Notes: a model not told the origin generated them from the sequence alone. A stretch of DNA of 64,000 nucleotides from Escherichia phage REP2 (OQ174501.1), one strand, 5' to 3'. Positions 741 to 27,443 are shown, counted from the stretch's first letter. Translations and numbers: made by a program.

Positions 741-2069
741 ATGCAACTGAATAATCGTGATTTAAAAAGTATCATTGATAATGAAGCATTGGCTTATGCT
801 ATGTACACGGTTGAAAATCGTGCTATCCCAAATATGATTGATGGATTTAAGCCAGTTCAACGATTTGTTATTGCTCGAGCTCTTGATTTGGCACGAGGAA
901 ATAAAGATAAGTTTCACAAACTCGCTTCTATTGCAGGTGGTGTAGCAGACCTTGGATATCATCATGGTGAAAACTCTGCACAAGACGCAGGTGCTTTGAT
1001 GGCTAATACTTGGAATAATAACTTTCCTCTGTTAGATGGTCAAGGAAACTTTGGTTCTCGTACCGTTCAAAAAGCAGCGGCAAGTCGTTATATTTTTGCT
1101 CGTGTAAGTAAAAATTTCTATAGCGTATATAAAGATACTGAATATGCTCCGGTACATCAAGATAAAGAACACATTCCGCCTGCTTTCTATTTGCCTATTA
1201 TTCCTACTGTTCTTCTTAATGGTGTTTCCGGTATTGCAACTGGTTATGCAACTTATATTCTTCCTCATAGTGTTTCTTCTGTCAAGAAAGCTGTATTGCA
1301 AGCTCTTCAAGGAAAGAAAGTAACTAAACCGAAGGTAGAATTTCCAGAATTTCGCGGTGAAGTCGTTGAAATTGACGGTCAATATGAAATTCGTGGAACG
1401 TACAAGTTTACTTCACGAACTCAAATGCATATCACTGAGATTCCGTATAAGTATGATCGTGAAACTTACGTGAGCAAAATTTTAGACCCGCTTGAAGATA
1501 AAGGCTTTATTACGTGGGATGATGCTTGCGGTGAGCATGGGTTTGGCTTTAAAGTTAAATTCCGTAAAGAATACTCTTTGAGCGATAACGAAGAAGAACG
1601 CCATGCAAAAATTATGAAAGACTTCGGGTTGATTGAGCGTCGTTCCCAGAATATTACCGTCATTAATGAGAAAGGAAAGCTGCAAGTTTACGATAATGTA
1701 GTTGATTTAATCAAAGACTTCGTTGAAGTTCGTAAAACTTATGTCCAAAAACGAATTGATAACAAAATCAAAGAAACTGAATCAGCATTTCGTTTAGCCT
1801 TTGCCAAGGCGCATTTCATTAAGAAAGTAATTTCAGGTGAAATTGTTGTGCAGGGTAAAACTCGCAAAGAACTGACCGAAGAACTTTCTAAAATTGATAT
1901 GTATTCTTCTTATGTTGATAAACTAGTCGGAATGAATATTTTTCATATGACTTCCGACGAAGCAAAGAAACTTGCTGAAGAAGCTAAAGCTAAGAAAGAA
2001 GAAAACGAATATTGGAAAACTACTGATGTAGTTACCGAATACACTAAAGATTTAGAGGAAATCAAATGA
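741..2069 (+). CDS. 52: DNA topoisomerase II medium subunit (GyrA-like N-terminal domain)
   Basis: 442 aa, same length as T4 gp52; GyrA-like motifs (AIPNMIDGFKPVQRFV, catalytic Tyr region). Confidence 0.95.
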   Translation: MQLNNRDLKSIIDNEALAYAMYTVENRAIPNMIDGFKPVQRFVIARALDLARGNKDKFHKLASIAGGVADLGYHHGENSAQDAGALMANTWNNNFPLLDGQGNFGSRTVQKAAASRYIFARVSKNFYSVYKDTEYAPVHQDKEHIPPAFYLPIIPTVLLNGVSGIATGYATYILPHSVSSVKKAVLQALQGKKVTKPKVEFPEFRGEVVEIDGQYEIRGTYKFTSRTQMHITEIPYKYDRETYVSKILDPLEDKGFITWDDACGEHGFGFKVKFRKEYSLSDNEEERHAKIMKDFGLIERRSQNITVINEKGKLQVYDNVVDLIKDFVEVRKTYVQKRIDNKIKETESAFRLAFAKAHFIKKVISGEIVVQGKTRKELTEELSKIDMYSSYVDKLVGMNIFHMTSDEAKKLAEEAKAKKEENEYWKTTDVVTEYTKDLEEIK

Positions 2070-2220
2070 GTCCATTCATAGGTATTACAAGCGCTGCATT
2101 AGTATCTGGTGGCATTTTACTGGCGGGTTTAGGTGTTGTTCCTGCCGTAGCAGGAGGTCTTCTTGCGTTCGGAATTCAACGTGTTATCATGATAGTTATC
2201 ACAGTCATGCAGTAATTTTA

Positions 2221-2251
2221 GGGAGAGCCTCGGCTCTCCCTTTTTTATTTT
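2221..2251 (+). terminator. Rho-independent terminator after gene 52
   Basis: GGGAGAGCC-TCG-GCTCTCCC hairpin followed by TTTTTTTATTTT. Confidence 0.8.
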
Positions 2252-2270
2252 AAAATTTTTTCACAAAACG

Positions 2271-2300
2271 GTTTACAACCAAAGCATACTGTGGTACTAT
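2271..2300 (+). promoter_or_regulatory. T4 early-type sigma70 promoter
   Basis: GTTTAC (2271-2276), 18-bp spacer, TGGTACTAT extended -10 (2295-2300). Confidence 0.7.
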
Positions 2301-2349
2301 ACAACTATCAAATAAATGAACTGAAACAAACAACCCGGAGATACAAAAA

Positions 2350-2577
2350 ATGAAATTTAAAATCGAAAACGAAATCGTTAAAGCTAAAAATGCTCTGACT
2401 GCTAACAAACTGGTTGTAGATGGTATTGAATATGATATCTGTGGAGTTCGTGAAGAAAAACCTGGTGTTCTGACTTTCTTCACAATGATTTTTAAATTTA
2501 AAGGTGACACAGAATTCAAACAGTTTGATTTTGCCCATGAAGACGAAATCGAAGTTCGTAATCTGAACATTAAGTAA
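2350..2577 (+). CDS. Hypothetical early protein (motA.1 / 52.1 position)
   Basis: 75-aa ORF with AGGAG-like SD (GGAGA) upstream; synteny between 52 and motA. Confidence 0.6.
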   Translation: MKFKIENEIVKAKNALTANKLVVDGIEYDICGVREEKPGVLTFFTMIFKFKGDTEFKQFDFAHEDEIEVRNLNIK

Positions 2578-2616
2578 GTACTTTATTAGAGCTCTTGAAA
2601 AAGAGTGCAAAAAAGT

Positions 2617-2645
2617 GTTTACTTCTGCTTTAAACATGATACTAT
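2617..2645 (+). promoter_or_regulatory. T4 early-type promoter upstream of motA
   Basis: GTTTAC (2617-2622), 17-bp spacer, TGATACTAT (2637-2645). Confidence 0.7.
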
Positions 2646-2682
2646 AGACCTATCAAATAAATGAACTGAAACGGAGATTAAA

Positions 2683-3318
2683 ATGTCTAAAGTAACTTAC
2701 ATCATCAAAGCTTCTAACGATGTTCTGAATGAAAAAACTGCTGCGATTTTAATTACCATTGCTAAGAAAGATTTCATTACAGCCGCAGAAGTTCGTGAGG
2801 TGCATCCAGATTTAGGTAATGCAGTAGTTAATAGTAATATTGGGGTATTGATTAAAAAAGGCCTGGTGGAGAAATCTGGTGATGGATTAATCATTACTGG
2901 TGAAGCTCAGGATATTATTTCAAATGCAGCAACTTTATACGCACAGGAAAACGCTCCGGAACTGCTGAAAAAACGAGCAACTCGTAAAGCTCGCGAAATT
3001 ACTTCTGATATGGAAGAAGATAAAGACTTCATGTTAAAACTTTTAGATGAAAATGGATTTGTTCTTAAAAAGGTTGAAACTTACCGCAGTAACTATCTCG
3101 CTATTTTAGAAAAACGCACTCACGGAATTCGTAATTTTGAAATTAACAACAATGGAAATATGCGAATTTTTGGATACAAAATGATGGAACATCATATTCA
3201 GAAATTTACTGATATCGGAATGTCATGTAAAATCGCTAAAAACGGTAATGTGTATCTTGACATTAAACGCTCGGTAGAAAACATTGAAGCTGTAATCACT
3301 GTAGCATCTGAACTGTGA
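2683..3318 (+). CDS. motA: MotA, middle-promoter transcription activator
   Basis: 211 aa, same length and N-terminal sequence as T4 MotA (MSKVTYIIKASNDVLNEKTAAILITIAKKDF...). Confidence 0.95.
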   Translation: MSKVTYIIKASNDVLNEKTAAILITIAKKDFITAAEVREVHPDLGNAVVNSNIGVLIKKGLVEKSGDGLIITGEAQDIISNAATLYAQENAPELLKKRATRKAREITSDMEEDKDFMLKLLDENGFVLKKVETYRSNYLAILEKRTHGIRNFEINNNGNMRIFGYKMMEHHIQKFTDIGMSCKIAKNGNVYLDIKRSVENIEAVITVASEL

Positions 3319-21629: not shown

Positions 21630-22490
21630 ATGAAACAATACCAAGATTTAATTAAAGACATTTTTGAAAATGGCTATGAAACCGATGACCGAACGGGCAC
21701 AGGAACAATTGCTCTGTTCGGTACTAAATTGCGTTGGGATTTAACTAAAGGCTTTCCTGCAGTAACAACTAAAAAGCTCGCCTGGAATGCATGCATTGCT
21801 GAGCTAATATGGTTTTTATCAGGAAGCACAAATGTCAATGATTTACGATTAATTCAACATGATTCATTAATTCAAGGCAAAACAGTCTGGGATGAAAATT
21901 ACGAAAATCAAGCAAAAGATTTAGGATACCATAGTGGTGAACTTGGTCCAATTTATGGAAAACAGTGGCGTGATTTTGGCGGTGTAGACCAAATTATAGA
22001 AGTTATTGATCGTATTAAAAAACTGCCAAATGATAGGCGTCAAATTGTTTCTGCATGGAATCCAGCTGAACTTAAATATATGGCATTACCGCCTTGTCAT
22101 ATGTTCTATCAGTTTAATGTGCGTAATGGCTATTTGGATTTGCAGTGGTATCAACGTTCGGTAGATGTTTTCCTCGGTCTTCCATTTAATATTGCATCAT
22201 ATGCTACGTTAGTTCATATTGTAGCTAAAATGTGTAATCTTATTCCTGGAGATTTGATATTTTCTGGTGGTAATACTCATATCTATATGAATCACGTAGA
22301 ACAATGTAAAGAAATTTTACGTCGTGAACCTATGGATTTATGCGAATTACAATTAAAATTTCCAGATGAATTTGATGAATGGGACACAGAATCGCAGGTA
22401 TTTTGGTTGAGTCAATTTGCAAAGCCTCATAATTTTGTTCTTAACAACTATGAATCACATCCTCCTATTAAAGGAAAGATGGCGGTGTAA
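21630..22490 (+). CDS. td: Thymidylate synthase, uninterrupted (no group I intron)
   Basis: 286 aa contiguous, equal to the spliced T4 Td length; active-site region [11 protein letters not shown] present in one ORF. Confidence 0.95.
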
Positions 22491-22498
22491 TTTTATTA

Positions 22499-22774
22499 TT
22501 GCGAGGATATATGATTTTACGATTTAAAGATACTTCTGGTGTAGTTCTTTTTACACTTCCTAACCCAAGCGAGTTAGAAGTTCCAGGACCAAATCAGCCT
22601 ATTATCATTTATGGCAAAAAATATTATACTCATAAAATGACCCGTGAGTATTTTGATAATAAAATTTCCACAGTTAAAACTTCTTCTGACTGTTACTACG
22701 ATATTACTGTTTTAACGGAAGAACAATATGAACACTTACAACCGCGCAGGCCGTATATGCCGAGTAGTGAATAA
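22499..22774 (+). CDS. Hypothetical early protein (nrdA.2 position)
   Basis: 91-aa ORF; synteny. Confidence 0.55.
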
Positions 22775-23054
22775 ATACAAATCCGACTTTGATGTTAATA
22801 TTCACCGCGGTACATTTTGGGGAAATTACGTCGGTAAAGATGCTGGCAGCCGAGAGGCTGCCATTGAATTATTCAAAAAAGATTTTATACGTCGAATTAA
22901 ATCCGGAGAAATAACTAAAGCACATTTAGAGCCTTTACGTGGAATGAGGCTAGGATGCACATGTAAACCAAAGCCGTGTCATGGTGATATAATAGCTCAT
23001 ATAGTTAACCGATTGTTTAAAGACGATTTTCAAGTTGAGGACTTATGCAATTAA
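22728..23054 (+). CDS. Hypothetical early protein (nrdA.1 position)
   Basis: 108-aa ORF with conserved Cys/His ([12 protein letters not shown]). Confidence 0.55.
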
Positions 23055-24478
23055 TTAATGTTATCAAAAGTAGTGGTGTTTCTCAGAGCTTTGACCCGCA
23101 AAAAATTATTAAAGTTTTATCTTGGGCAGCTGAAGGAACATCTGTAGATCCTTATGAATTATATGAAAATATTAAATCATATCTCCGTGATGGAATGACC
23201 ACTGATGACATTCAGACTATTGTCATTAAGGCTGCTGCGAATTCTATTTCAGTTGAAGAGCCTGATTATCAATACGTAGCTGCACGCTGTTTAATGTTTG
23301 CTCTTCGTAAGCATGTTTACGGGCAATATGAACCACGTTCATTTATTGACCATATTTCTTACTGTGTAAATGAAGGTAAATATGACCCCGAATTATTGTC
23401 AAAATATTCAGCAGAAGAAATTACATTTTTAGAATCAAAAATTAAGCACGAACGGGATATGGAATTTACTTATTCCGGGGCGATGCAATTAAAAGAAAAA
23501 TATCTAGTTAAAGATAAAACCACTGGTCAAATTTATGAAACTCCACAGTTTGCATTTATGACTATTGGAATGGCATTGCATCAAGATGAACCTGTTGATA
23601 GATTAAAACATGTTATTCGTTTTTATGAAGCAGTATCTACTCGACAGATTTCACTGCCAACTCCTATTATGGCTGGTTGCCGTACTCCGACTCGACAGTT
23701 CAGTTCATGCGTTGTTATTGAGGCAGGAGATTCATTGAAGTCTATCAATAAGGCTTCCGCTTCGATTGTTGAATATATCTCTAAACGCGCTGGAATTGGT
23801 ATTAACGTTGGTATGATTCGTGCTGAAGGTTCTAAGATTGGCATGGGTGAAGTACGCCATACTGGTGTTATTCCTTTTTGGAAACATTTTCAGACTGCAG
23901 TTAAATCATGTTCACAGGGTGGAATTCGTGGCGGCGCTGCTACTGCTTATTATCCTATTTGGCATTTGGAAGTTGAAAATCTTCTTGTTTTGAAAAATAA
24001 CAAAGGCGTAGAAGAAAACCGCATTCGTCATATGGATTATGGTGTTCAACTGAATGATTTGATGATGGAACGTTTTGGAAAGAACGATTACATTACTTTG
24101 TTCAGTCCCCATGAAATGGGCGGAGAGCTTTATTATTCTTATTTTAAAGACCAAGACCGTTTCCGTGAATTGTATGAAGCCGCAGAAAAAGACCCTAATA
24201 TTCGTAAAAAGCGTATTAAAGCTCGTGAACTATTTGAATTGCTCATGACTGAACGCTCAGGAACAGCAAGGATTTATGTACAGTTCATTGATAATACGAA
24301 TAACTATACTCCATTTATTCGTGAAAAGGCACCTATTCGTCAGAGTAACTTGTGCTGTGAAATTGCTATTCCAACAAATGACGTGAATAGCCAACAAACC
24401 CGTTTAATCAAAATTAAGAAGTCGGATGTAGCTAAGTTTTATGAAGCTAATCCTGGCGGTATAATTCAAAGCAAATAA
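23045..24478 (+). CDS. nrdA: Ribonucleotide reductase large subunit, N-terminal piece (NrdA-a)
   Basis: 477 aa; ATP-cone and catalytic barrel up to the SNLCCEIAIPTNDVN motif (N437/C439/E441 equivalents), then 29 unrelated codons and a stop. Confidence 0.9.
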   Translation: MQLINVIKSSGVSQSFDPQKIIKVLSWAAEGTSVDPYELYENIKSYLRDGMTTDDIQTIVIKAAANSISVEEPDYQYVAARCLMFALRKHVYGQYEPRSFIDHISYCVNEGKYDPELLSKYSAEEITFLESKIKHERDMEFTYSGAMQLKEKYLVKDKTTGQIYETPQFAFMTIGMALHQDEPVDRLKHVIRFYEAVSTRQISLPTPIMAGCRTPTRQFSSCVVIEAGDSLKSINKASASIVEYISKRAGIGINVGMIRAEGSKIGMGEVRHTGVIPFWKHFQTAVKSCSQGGIRGGAATAYYPIWHLEVENLLVLKNNKGVEENRIRHMDYGVQLNDLMMERFGKNDYITLFSPHEMGGELYYSYFKDQDRFRELYEAAEKDPNIRKKRIKARELFELLMTERSGTARIYVQFIDNTNNYTPFIREKAPIRQSNLCCEIAIPTNDVNSQQTRLIKIKKSDVAKFYEANPGGIIQSK

Positions 24479-25292
24479 AGTACACAGACCGTTAATAAAT
24501 AATCCATAACAAGAGGAAAAGTTATGGATTATTCTAAAATTTACAATAACCTTATTTCTAAAGCTAAGAACAGAAAATTAGATTGCTATACCGAATCACA
24601 CCATATTATACCTCTGTGTATTGGTGGTTCTGATACAAAGGAAAACCTGGTAGATTTGACACCCGAAGAGCATTACATAGCTCATCAATTATTAGTAAAG
24701 ATATATCCAGATAATCATAAATTGGTATTTGCCGCTAATATGATGTGTGTTTATTCTGAAGATAATATTGAACGAAAGAACACCAATAAACGCCATGGGT
24801 GGCTTAGAAGAAAATTGGCTATTTCTGTATCTGAAAATAATAAAGGCAAACCAGCTTGGAACAAAGGTATTCCGGTAACTGACGAGCATAGAGAAAAACT
24901 TCAAACAACTTGGGTATTTACTTTCCCGGACGGTCATGAAGAAATCCATAAAGGCCTAAGAGAATTTTGCGAACTACATTCACTCAATGCTTCGGCAATG
25001 TCGGCCGTATGCAAAGGCAAAAGGTCTCAACATAAAGGCTTTAAGTGTCGAAAGCTTGATAATATCTCTGAAAACGATAATCAAGAATACGTCAGTAAAC
25101 CTCATCCAAAGGGATTAAAACCCCATAACTTAATTGCTGTAAAAATAAACGGTATAGAATATCAATCAATACATCGAGCATCTAAAGCTCTAGGAATATC
25201 TCGAAAAAAGGTAGAAGAATTAAATGAATATTGATTATGAATTTGTAGATGAATTTTACGAAGATGATGAGTATACAACAATACAAGTTATT
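24389..25292 (+). mobile_element. 904-bp insert in nrdA carrying a free-standing HNH homing-endonuclease gene
   Basis: NrdA homology breaks after codon 448 and resumes 23 codons into the downstream ORF; boundaries are approximate. Confidence 0.6.
24524..25234 (+). CDS. HNH-family homing endonuclease (MobE / I-HmuI-like)
   Basis: 236 aa; HNH motif ESHHIIPLCIGGSDTKENLVDLTPEEHYIAH, NUMOD3-like KGKPAWNKGIPVTDEHREKL, C-terminal HTH-like INGIEYQSIHRASKALGISRKKV; SD GAGGA upstream. Confidence 0.85.
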   Translation: MDYSKIYNNLISKAKNRKLDCYTESHHIIPLCIGGSDTKENLVDLTPEEHYIAHQLLVKIYPDNHKLVFAANMMCVYSEDNIERKNTNKRHGWLRRKLAISVSENNKGKPAWNKGIPVTDEHREKLQTTWVFTFPDGHEEIHKGLREFCELHSLNASAMSAVCKGKRSQHKGFKCRKLDNISENDNQEYVSKPHPKGLKPHNLIAVKINGIEYQSIHRASKALGISRKKVEELNEY

Positions 25293-26213
25293 GAAAACAA
25301 AGGTGAAGTGGGCCTCTGTACTCTCTCTGCATTCGTACTGGATAATTTTGACTGGCAAGACCAAGATAAAATTAATGAATTGGCAGAAGTCCAGGTTCGT
25401 GCTCTTGATAATCTTTTGGATTACCAAGGATATCCAGTTCCTGAAGCAGAAAAAGCTAAAAAGCGTCGTAACCTCGGTGTAGGTGTTACTAACTATGCAG
25501 CTTGGTTGGCAAGTAACTTTGCTTCTTATGAAGATGCTAACGATTTAACACATGAACTATTTGAGAGATTACAGTATGGACTCATTAAAGCATCCATTAA
25601 ACTCGCCAAAGAAAAAGGACCTTGTGAATATTATTCAGACACTCGTTGGTCTCGAGGCGAATTACCTATCGACTGGTACAATAAAAAGATTGACCAAATC
25701 GCAGCTCCAAAATACGTTTGTGACTGGTCGTCGCTGCGGGAAGACCTTAAGCTCTTTGGCATCCGTAATAGCACATTATCAGCACTTATGCCATGTGAGT
25801 CATCTTCCCAAGTTTCTAACAGTACAAACGGTATCGAGCCTCCACGTGGACCAGTCTCTGTTAAAGAATCAAAAGAGGGCTCCTTTAATCAAGTCGTGCC
25901 CAATATTGAGCATAACATAGACCTTTATGATTATACATGGAAATTAGCTAAGAAAGGTAATAAACCTTATCTTACGCAGGTAGCTATTATGCTGAAATGG
26001 GTTTGTCAATCAGCTTCGGCGAATACATACTATGACCCCCAAATCTTCCCTAAAGGCAAGGTTCCAATGTCAATAATGATTGATGACCTTTTGTATTTCT
26101 GGTATTTTGGCGGAAAAAATTTCTATTATCATAATACCCGTGACGGTTCTGGTACTGATGATTATGAAATAGAAACTCCAAAAGCTGAAGATTGTTCATC
26201 CTGTAAATTATGA
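25224..26213 (+). CDS. nrdA: Ribonucleotide reductase large subunit, C-terminal piece (NrdA-b)
   Basis: 329 aa; after a 23-aa leader, matches class Ia NrdA from ENKGEVGLCTLSAF (C462 equivalent) to the C-terminal CSSC pair; ATG overlaps the HNH ORF 3' end. Confidence 0.9.
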   Translation: MNIDYEFVDEFYEDDEYTTIQVIENKGEVGLCTLSAFVLDNFDWQDQDKINELAEVQVRALDNLLDYQGYPVPEAEKAKKRRNLGVGVTNYAAWLASNFASYEDANDLTHELFERLQYGLIKASIKLAKEKGPCEYYSDTRWSRGELPIDWYNKKIDQIAAPKYVCDWSSLREDLKLFGIRNSTLSALMPCESSSQVSNSTNGIEPPRGPVSVKESKEGSFNQVVPNIEHNIDLYDYTWKLAKKGNKPYLTQVAIMLKWVCQSASANTYYDPQIFPKGKVPMSIMIDDLLYFWYFGGKNFYYHNTRDGSGTDDYEIETPKAEDCSSCKL

Positions 26214-26264
26214 TATAATTTGACTCACGGACGAGTCACCAACTATTAACTAAGCGGAAAATTT

Positions 26265-27443
26265 ATGAGCACAGTTTTTAATACAAATCCAGTTGATGTT
26301 TTAAAAGAACCTATGTTTTTTGGTTCAGGTCTTGGTATTGCGCGTTATGATATTCAACGTCATAAAGTTTTTGAAGATTTAACCGAAAAGCAGTTGTCAT
26401 TTTTCTGGCGTCCTGAAGAAGTAAACTTAATGATGGATGCTGCACAGTTTAATAAGCTTCCTCAATATCAGCAGAATATTTTTACTAATAATCTGAAGTA
26501 TCAATCACTTCTGGATAGCATTCAGGGTCGTGCACCGTCTGCTGTACTTATGTCGTTAATTTCAGACCCAAGTCTTGATACATGGGTTGCTACATGGACT
26601 TTTAGTGAAACTATTCACAGTCGTTCATACACTCATATTATGCGAAATCTTTATACTGATCCGTCAAAGGTATTTGATGAGATTGTATTAGATAAAGCTA
26701 TCATGAAACGTGCTGAATCTATTGGTCGTTATTATGATGATGTTCTGGTTAAGACGCGCGAATGGGAAAATGCAAAAGAAATTTTTAAATGTTTTTCCGA
26801 AAATGAATATGATTTAGATGCATATTCAAATAGTCTTATGCATGTGGAAGAATGTAAATATGCATTGATGAAGTCGCTTTATCTCTGCCTTCATGTTATC
26901 AATGCCCTGGAAGCTATTCGTTTTTATGTATCCTTTGCATGTACTTTCAACTTCCATAAAAATATGGAAATCATGGAAGGTAATGCGAAGATTATGAAAT
27001 TCATTGCTCGAGACGAACAACTCCACCTTAAAGGCACCCAGTATATTATTCGTCAGCTCCAACTTGGCACTGATGGTGATGAATGGGTTAAAATTGCCAA
27101 AGAGTGTGAACAAGAAGCAGTTGATATTTTCATGGAAGTTAACCGCCAAGAAAAAGATTGGGCAGTTCATTTATTTAAAGATGGCGATGTTCCTGGATTA
27201 AATACAAATAGCATGTGGAGCTTTATTGATTACTTAACTGTGTCTCGTATGAAACAGTGTGGTCTTCCATGTCCAATTACCGATGCTCCGGTTAAACATC
27301 CATATCCTTGGATTCGTGAATACCTTAATTCTGATAATGTTCAATCCGCGCCGCAAGAAGTAGAACTGTCATCTTATCTTGTTGCACAGATTGATAATGA
27401 TGTTGATGATAAAGTTATGATGAGTTTTAAAAAATATTTTTAA
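26265..27443 (+). CDS. nrdB: Ribonucleotide reductase small subunit, uninterrupted
   Basis: 392 aa; di-iron ligand motifs (ETIHSRSYTH, EAIRFY, EQLHLKG); no intron. Confidence 0.95.
   Translation: MSTVFNTNPVDVLKEPMFFGSGLGIARYDIQRHKVFEDLTEKQLSFFWRPEEVNLMMDAAQFNKLPQYQQNIFTNNLKYQSLLDSIQGRAPSAVLMSLISDPSLDTWVATWTFSETIHSRSYTHIMRNLYTDPSKVFDEIVLDKAIMKRAESIGRYYDDVLVKTREWENAKEIFKCFSENEYDLDAYSNSLMHVEECKYALMKSLYLCLHVINALEAIRFYVSFACTFNFHKNMEIMEGNAKIMKFIARDEQLHLKGTQYIIRQLQLGTDGDEWVKIAKECEQEAVDIFMEVNRQEKDWAVHLFKDGDVPGLNTNSMWSFIDYLTVSRMKQCGLPCPITDAPVKHPYPWIREYLNSDNVQSAPQEVELSSYLVAQIDNDVDDKVMMSFKKYF

Follow-up and report, generated by a model that had tools for sequence, protein, structure and literature searches.

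In a 64,000-nt stretch of DNA from Escherichia phage REP2 (OQ174501.1), referred to here as the window, the nrdA gene, encoding the ribonucleotide reductase (RNR) large subunit, was found to be split into two open reading frames (ORFs), nrdA-a and nrdA-b, by a cassette carrying an HNH endonuclease gene. Escherichia phage REP3 (OQ174502.1), a Tequatrovirus, matched the region concerned with 100 % identity, and the locus is therefore called REP3 in the comparisons. Very probably, the cassette is a MobE-family element homologous to mobE of Aeromonas phage Aeh1 that was inserted in a surface loop of NrdA, the two halves of the enzyme reassemble, and the cassette spreads by homing. The comparisons support the view that REP3 is a further member of the ‘genes in pieces’ kind represented by Aeh1 mobE, whose parts are already annotated in GenBank. 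The parts of the split gene are as follows.

23045..24478, + strand: nrdA-a, 477 aa; ATP cone, all-α domain and first half of the barrel
24392..25304, + strand: mobile cassette, 913 bp, delimited by alignment to the intact allele and by comparison with phage F2
24392..24478, + strand: C-terminal extension (CTE) of NrdA-a, QQTRLIKIKKSDVAKFYEANPGGIIQSK plus stop, 28 codons
24524..25234, + strand: HNH ORF, 236 aa, MobE family, free-standing; Shine–Dalgarno sequence AAGAGGAAAA upstream
25224..26213, + strand: nrdA-b, 329 aa; second half of the barrel; 11-nt overlap with the HNH ORF
25224..25304, + strand: N-terminal extension (NTE) of NrdA-b, MNIDYEFVDEFYEDDEYTTIQVIENKG, 27 codons
25305..25316, + strand: recoded junction, GAAGTGGGCCTC against GAAATTGGATTG in the intact allele; five changes in 12 nt, one amino-acid change

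Structure of the split nrdA gene

The coordinates and sizes given for the three ORFs in a first-pass annotation of the window were matched exactly in an ORF check. Alignment to intact T4-like and Escherichia coli NrdA fixed the breakpoint in the loop before the equivalent of Cys462, and the alignments and Pfam agreed with the annotation that the split falls between this cysteine and the Asn/Cys/Glu finger loop. NrdA-a carries Cys222 and Asn435/Cys437/Glu439 (C225 and N437/C439/E441 in E. coli), and NrdA-b carries Cys32 (C462), Tyr301/302 (Y730/Y731) and the C-terminal CSSC. Residues 220–446 of NrdA-a matched positions 1–221 of the Pfam barrel profile and residues 24–303 of NrdA-b matched positions 219–523, indicating that no part of the domain is missing.

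The comparison set consisted of about 800 T4-like phages with an intact nrdA of 754 aa. The intact gene of phage G157lw, whose nrdA flanks were 98.7 % identical to REP3, measures 2265 nt (754 aa), exactly 904 nt less than the 3169 nt found here; its protein length equals the sum of 448 and 306 codons from which an otherwise complete gene had been deduced. Residues 1–449 of NrdA-a were identical to the intact protein, and residues 28–329 of NrdA-b showed a single difference from it, adjoining the junction. The intact allele reads ...PTNDVNS-PDA-EIGLCTLSAF..., NrdA-a reads ...PTNDVNS-QQTRLIKIKKSDVAKFYEANPGGIIQSK followed by the stop, and NrdA-b reads MNIDYEFVDEFYEDDEYTTIQVIENKG-EVGLCTLSAF.... 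As Ser449 is common to both alleles (AGC vs AGT) and DNA identity resumes at codon 28 of nrdA-b (GAA), the DNA unique to REP3 is 24392..25304. The location first assigned to the breakpoint was retained, with the end of the NrdA match moved from codon 448 to codon 449. The net gain of 904 bp also held, with 913 bp standing in place of the 9 bp CCTGATGCT (Pro-Asp-Ala) of the intact allele. Had the additional residues belonged to NrdA they should occur in intact proteins; the intact T4-like allele of 754 aa carries only PDA at this position.

The CTE codons and their stop open the cassette; they are followed by a spacer, by the HNH gene and by the nrdA-b start codon with its N-terminal leader, and only 45 nt of the cassette are non-coding. 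The tail of NrdA-a, first counted as 29 codons, is 28 codons and a stop in the refined count, and the leader of nrdA-b, first given as 23 codons, can be set at 23–27, shared DNA restarting at codon 28. The CTE is basic (pI ~10, net charge +3.5 with Ser449 counted in), and the NTE is acidic (net charge ~ −8.5). The NTE ends in QVIENKG, which resembles a DVNxxxG loop segment copied from a donor and since diverged.

Occurrence of the split gene

Database records with the split structure and its endonuclease numbered 34, from ~27 distinct phages, and 32 records covered at least 80 % of the region. Carriers include HY01, PEC04, vB_EcoM_112, UFV-AREG1, fPS-2, fPS-90, F2 and Salmonella phage Manna. 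Recurrence of the same structure in 34 records is not a matter of chance and excludes an assembly error, which disposes of the sequencing artefact that had been considered earlier. The cassette was patchily distributed among close relatives, and the existence of very close cassette-free relatives indicates that the insertion is recent and polymorphic. GenBank annotations of carriers show nrdA as two fragments, along with a homing endonuclease. The coliphage split was not described in the open-access literature searched, the exception being one remark, given as unpublished, in a 2022 preprint that mentions ‘several other Myoviridae’ with such MobE insertions (10.1101/2022.08.31.505936).

Homology to the split nrdA of phage Aeh1

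Aeh1 had been proposed as the precedent for this arrangement, and both its endonuclease and its tails proved homologous. The Aeh1 locus consists of nrdA-A (473 aa), mobE (237 aa) and nrdA-B (323 aa), and the two endonucleases were 48 % identical over their full length (236/237 aa). In the alignment of the tails, the REP3 CTE SQQTRLIKIKKSDVAKF was paired with KKEKMLFKVKKSEVDKF of Aeh1 and the NTE MNIDYEFVDEFYEDDEYTTI with M-IEHERIYEVYEDEEYTTV; the global alignment had z = 8.5, and none of 2000 shuffles was as good. Identity amounted to 42–47 % for the NTE and for a CTE core of 17 residues, to 31 % for the whole CTE and to 52–60 % for the NrdA cores. The tails are thus conserved to a degree comparable with the endonuclease and the NrdA cores, which argues for purifying selection on them. 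Their charges (+3.5/−8.5) match the pI values of 10.4 and 3.8 published for the Aeh1 tails (PMC3045599).

The two loci are also alike in layout. Both are split in the same loop of NrdA, which in E. coli separates the Cys439/Glu441 finger loop from Cys462, and the redox cysteines are on separate chains (C222/C32 in REP3, C219/C31 in Aeh1); the spacers measure 45 nt (REP3) and 46 nt, the overlaps 11 and 14 nt. They differ in that the REP3 lineage comprises Tequatrovirus coliphages with the canonical td-nrdA-nrdB-denA context, whereas the Aeh1 nrd operon lies elsewhere, in that REP3 keeps ‘DVNS’ upstream and the diverged ‘QVIENKG’ downstream as a partial loop duplication, and in that REP3 has very close cassette-free relatives. 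Furthermore, the Aeh1 enzyme has been studied experimentally, whereas the coliphage case is known from its genes. The Aeh1 nrdA-a/mobE/nrdA-b arrangement has reportedly also been treated by Gibb and Edgell, in 2007 and 2009. Crona et al. (2010; PMC3045599) credit the Aeh1 ‘genes in pieces’ RNR to Friedrich et al. (2007). Mass spectrometry demonstrated that the Aeh1 halves are separate polypeptides that retain their tails, and the split enzyme, (aa/ab)2b2, was fully active, with the tails being essential (PMC3045599). As of 2010, database searches with the Aeh1 tails had given nothing.

The MobE-family endonuclease

The 236-aa protein matched PHROG 655 (E 3e-60). A putative HNH motif lies at residues 21–54, where HHIIPLCIGGSDTKENLVDLTPEEHYIAH aligned to the HNH motif of McrA (E 0.0035). 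An I-HmuI NUMOD-like domain (PF22083, residues 135–173) scored above the Pfam cut-off, and a weak C-terminal helix-turn-helix of the NUMOD1/I-TevI type was detected at residues ~196–230. The comparison with MobE that had been recommended returned, beside Aeh1, 46 % identity to T4 MobE over 127 aa (E 5e-32), confined to the N-terminal HNH region. T4 MobE is likewise a free-standing homing endonuclease of the RNR operon, but it has only 141 aa, lacks the C-terminal NUMOD-like and helix-turn-helix region, and is encoded between nrdA and nrdB, where it splits no gene; it nicks nrdB (Wilson & Edgell, 2009; PMC2790892).

The nearest relatives of Aeh1 MobE in the phage database were exactly the REP3-like group, followed at ~31 % identity by endonucleases beside uvsW, and an IMG/VR scan with the endonuclease alignment gave a full-length match to Aeh1 only. 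The next full-length relatives of the REP3 protein (30–36 % identity; for example in the T4-like phages PSD2002, HY03, SP18 and Proteus PM2) were encoded beside or overlapping the uvsW helicase gene, and these may represent an analogous split of uvsW.

A comparable gene fission is that of the T4 topoisomerase gene 39/60 by the mobA element (preprint 10.1101/2022.08.31.505936). There, too, an essential gene is split by an HNH Mob cassette that supplies extensions at the C- and N-termini, the N-terminal one holding a copy of the homologous target region; the mobA element differs from REP3 in the host gene, in the inclusion of a 50-nt translational bypass cassette and in the length of the extensions (~44 aa).

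Movement of the cassette between phages

REP3 was compared with phage F2, also a Tequatrovirus. The native parts of nrdA-a and nrdA-b were 76.7 and 79.2 % identical, compared with 96.8 % for the 904-bp cassette (100 % in the spacer, ~96–98 % in the tails), and the edges of the block of high identity were sharp, at ~24383 and ~25299. The contrast between the cassette (96.8 %) and its flanks (77–79 %) indicates that the cassette, together with its tails, was transferred in one piece between diverged phages. Such a pattern is the expected signature of homing and provides direct evidence for the repair tails being carried by the element as cargo. Within the endonuclease gene, 20 of the REP3/F2 differences were concentrated in 45 nt (24853..24897), the rest being ~99 % identical; this mosaic patch suggests recombination with a third variant.

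Proposed mechanism of assembly, regulation and homing

The loop that received the cassette would be a surface loop between the finger loop (Asn435/Cys437/Glu439) and the redox-active Cys32 of NrdA-b. The cassette would supply nrdA-a with a basic tail and stop codon and nrdA-b with a start codon and acidic leader, in addition to bringing in the endonuclease gene. By analogy with the Aeh1 experiments, the halves would be translated separately and form a non-covalent (aa/ab)2 large subunit, in which the oppositely charged tails would act as assembly domains and the composite active site, with Cys222 and Cys32 on different chains, would work with NrdB.

Two predicted elements lie in front of the endonuclease gene.

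24494..24501, + strand: AATAAATA, 7/8 match to the T4 late-promoter consensus TATAAATA; adjoins the 5′ arm of the hairpin
24498..24533, + strand: perfect 13-bp RNA hairpin, arms AAUAAUCCAUAAC and GUUAUGGAUUAUU; z = −2.2 for the 121-nt context

The hairpin holds the Shine–Dalgarno sequence AAGAGGAAAA in its loop and the endonuclease AUG (24524) in its 3′ arm, and it is predicted to be a translational repressor that holds down synthesis of the endonuclease on early read-through mRNA. The late-promoter-like motif AATAAATA occurs only four times on the + strand of the 64 kb; late transcription from it would begin within the hairpin's 5′ arm and would probably lift the repression. A promoter-plus-hairpin arrangement of this type has been described for I-TevI, segB and Aeh1 mobE (PMC2988022), and repression by the Aeh1 MobE hairpin was shown experimentally (PMC3045599, PMC2988022). 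The analogous Aeh1 hairpin occludes translation initiation by covering the Shine–Dalgarno sequence of the ribosome binding site, whereas that predicted in REP3 covers the AUG, and the two are unrelated in sequence.

In a mixed infection, the endonuclease would nick or cleave a cassette-free nrdA at the intact loop-coding sequence AATGATGTGAATAGTCCTGATGCTGAAATTGGATTG, which we infer to be its target, and repair would copy in the whole cassette. The recoded junction probably destroys this target in the carrier and would thereby shield the carrier genome.

Several considerations weigh against this interpretation. The coliphage case, that is REP3 and its relatives, is documented solely at the sequence level. 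T4 nrdA is dispensable in nrd+ hosts, so an inactive split gene could persist for a while, and a perfect match of the halves to intact alleles demonstrates recency and not function. The endonuclease scored only 17.9 bits against the Pfam HNH profile, under the curated cut-off of 21.4 bits. The spacer was 100 % conserved among the carriers compared, leaving the hairpin without covariation, and the late-promoter motif contains one mismatch.

Alternative explanations

The nrdA fragments might instead be recent pseudogenes, with dNTPs being supplied by host NrdAB or phage NrdDG and the tails representing meaningless read-through. We regard this as improbable, although the dispensability of the T4 gene would permit it, the halves are too similar to intact alleles for decay to show yet, and nrdA was given as ‘not predicted’ in one published genome of a related phage. 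Against it, the tails of REP3 and Aeh1 are conserved like the enzyme and the endonuclease despite 40–50 % protein divergence, and the CTE motif recurs in metagenomic splits with different endonucleases or none (see below). Moreover, both halves were open and full-length in all carriers whose nrdA flanks differed by 21–23 % in DNA, and the Aeh1 enzyme is fully active (PMC3045599).

That the cassette is a group I intron, the splicing of which restores a continuous 754-codon nrdA mRNA, is more improbable still; the first-pass annotation had likewise judged an intron less likely. Such introns are found in td, nrdB and nrdD of T4 relatives, the putative 5′ exon ends in U, and the sum 448 + 306 = 754 would permit an in-frame join. 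Against this, a search of 23800..25800 with Rfam at E≤10 detected no group I intron and no credible RNA family; apart from the 45 non-coding nt the insert encodes peptides conserved with Aeh1, whose tails were found in the mature proteins by mass spectrometry (PMC3045599). The 3′ end of the putative intron, at the length-preserving boundary, is T and not G, as had been pointed out, and comparison with the intact allele revealed a 9-bp replacement and not a precise insertion.

Joining of the NrdA halves by protein trans-splicing, with the tails as split-intein halves, can be given almost no credence: although nrdA fractured by split inteins is common in metagenomes (Dassa et al., 2009; PMC2677866) and many NrdA-b-like proteins of ~350 aa start with ...VYDI.V....NF.AN.ILVHN directly before C, these inteins occupy the position of the catalytic Cys439, which is 12 residues upstream of the REP3 site, the REP3 tails (28 and 27 aa) have neither a terminal HN + Cys/Ser/Thr nor an N-terminal Cys/Ser block, and the Aeh1 tails stay on the mature proteins (PMC3045599). 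Like REP3, the fractured genes are interrupted close to the active site, and an endonuclease frequently separates their two halves; they differ in having canonical intein blocks and covalent trans-splicing, whereas REP3 lacks intein motifs and its assembly would be non-covalent. Taken together, inteins at Cys439 and splits of the REP3 type mark the 25 residues around the NrdA active site as a hotspot for at least two kinds of fission. Metagenomic NrdA-b-like proteins with a split-intein C-half were P0210, P0218, P0224, P0264, P0281, P0316, P0327 and P0340.

Other splits and inserts in the same loop

Further splits in the same loop were sought by searching the full library with NrdA-b and then looking up the contexts of the matches. 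The CTE motif h-x-h-KK-x-[DE]-h-x-KF was common to REP3, Aeh1 and the metagenomic contigs L022 and L024. In L022 (Logan SRR24908162), nrdA-a is followed by a gene for a SegE-like GIY-YIG endonuclease (1600..2376) and nrdA-b (2373..3308); the CTE reads ...KRVRVKKQDLAKF... and the leader is strongly acidic. The C-terminal 130 residues of this endonuclease were 37 % identical to the REP3 HNH protein (E 6e-26), and this shared DNA-binding region indicates a swap of nuclease domains on a common targeting module. The nrdA-b of L022 also contains an apparent intein after ALMPAE, before C. The L024 CTE reads ...YTVAVKKERTREF..., and its endonuclease has six NUMOD3 repeats and an N-terminus that is GIY-YIG-like by eye, with no Pfam nuclease match. 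In L023 the halves are separated by an ORF of 146 aa with no Pfam match. No gene lies between the halves in L026 (250..370) and L027 (TAA-G-ATG), which keep both extensions and possibly represent a stage after loss of the endonuclease. The contexts of L022–L027 indicate that the split with its extensions recurs with different nuclease heads and survives endonuclease loss.

In Acinetobacter T4-like phages (all 66 records in the database) NrdA is contiguous, with ~803 aa, and the same loop holds a 51-aa insert, located between N450 and D451 by E. coli numbering. The insert is basic in its first half and acidic in its second; its DLP2 sequence (L006 1013..3424), ...QRLAVAKGDIIKF..., aligns in register with the CTE motif of the splits. 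Anchored global alignment of the tails to the insert gave z = 7.5 for the REP3 CTE; Aeh1 was marginal (z ~2.6–2.8). A local hidden Markov model (HMM) of the insert was not significant against the fused tails (p ~0.07 and 0.3). An HMM of four split CTEs detected three of five Acinetobacter sequences at p ~0.001–0.01, missing the other two and P0276, and with six CTEs the Acinetobacter signal was weaker (p ~0.02–0.04). Searches of the protein database gave no candidates with the 65-aa insert alone, mostly truncated fragments with a 179-aa segment, and only near-identical T4-like NrdAs with NrdA-a; tblastn of the insert at E≤10 returned Acinetobacter phages only. Unrelated inserts were present in the same loop in other NrdA lineages (P0332, P0333), indicating that the loop simply tolerates insertions.

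A common origin of the tails and the Acinetobacter insert is conceivable from these similarities but rather doubtful, and homology is not claimed. Equally tentative is the proposal that the tails form a self-contained ‘fission-tolerance’ module belonging to the NrdA loop, more lasting and wider in range than any single endonuclease, with the Acinetobacter insert as its unsplit form; if so, that insert would be the ancestral target or the healed scar of an old invasion. The proposal draws on the recurrence of the C-terminal motif and an acidic leader around an HNH endonuclease (REP3, Aeh1), around GIY-YIG or GIY-YIG-like endonucleases (L022, L024), around the L023 ORF and, in L026 and L027, around no gene. 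Among other Acinetobacter phages, phage 133 has an annotated split rnlA (rnlA-A; L009 5071..5207), and in Acj9 nrdA and nrdB are separated by a Hef-like endonuclease gene (L010 3645..5207).

Significance of the coliphage case

Aeh1 is the sole well-studied example of an essential enzyme kept alive after being split by a homing endonuclease, and REP3 brings the case to T4-type coliphages, where E. coli genetics can be used, homing crosses can be made with close relatives that lack the cassette, and intact alleles can serve as controls. That the tails travel with the endonuclease as a conserved unit bears on the origin of the tails, which was left open in 2010. For annotation, two ‘nrdA’ fragments with a ‘homing endonuclease’ in a Tequatrovirus genome probably denote a functional split RNR and not a pseudogene or an assembly error.

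The nrd operon of REP3

Gene order in the region is frd - td - nrdA.2 - nrdA.1 - nrdA-a - HNH - nrdA-b - nrdB - denA - rnlA. The gene downstream of nrdA-b is contiguous.

26265..27443, + strand: nrdB, 392 aa; no intron; 51-nt gap after nrdA-b

As first noted, nrdA-b runs directly into nrdB, the gap (26214..26264) containing neither mobE nor nrdB.1, unlike T4. Also unlike T4, td (21630..22490) lacks an intron with I-TevI and nrdB lacks one with I-TevIII, and the cassette inside nrdA is the sole mobile element of the REP3 nrd operon. The nrdA.1 homologue (22728..23054, 108 aa) matched Pfam DUF4326 (E 5.5e-22) and overlaps the start of nrdA-a by 10 nt.

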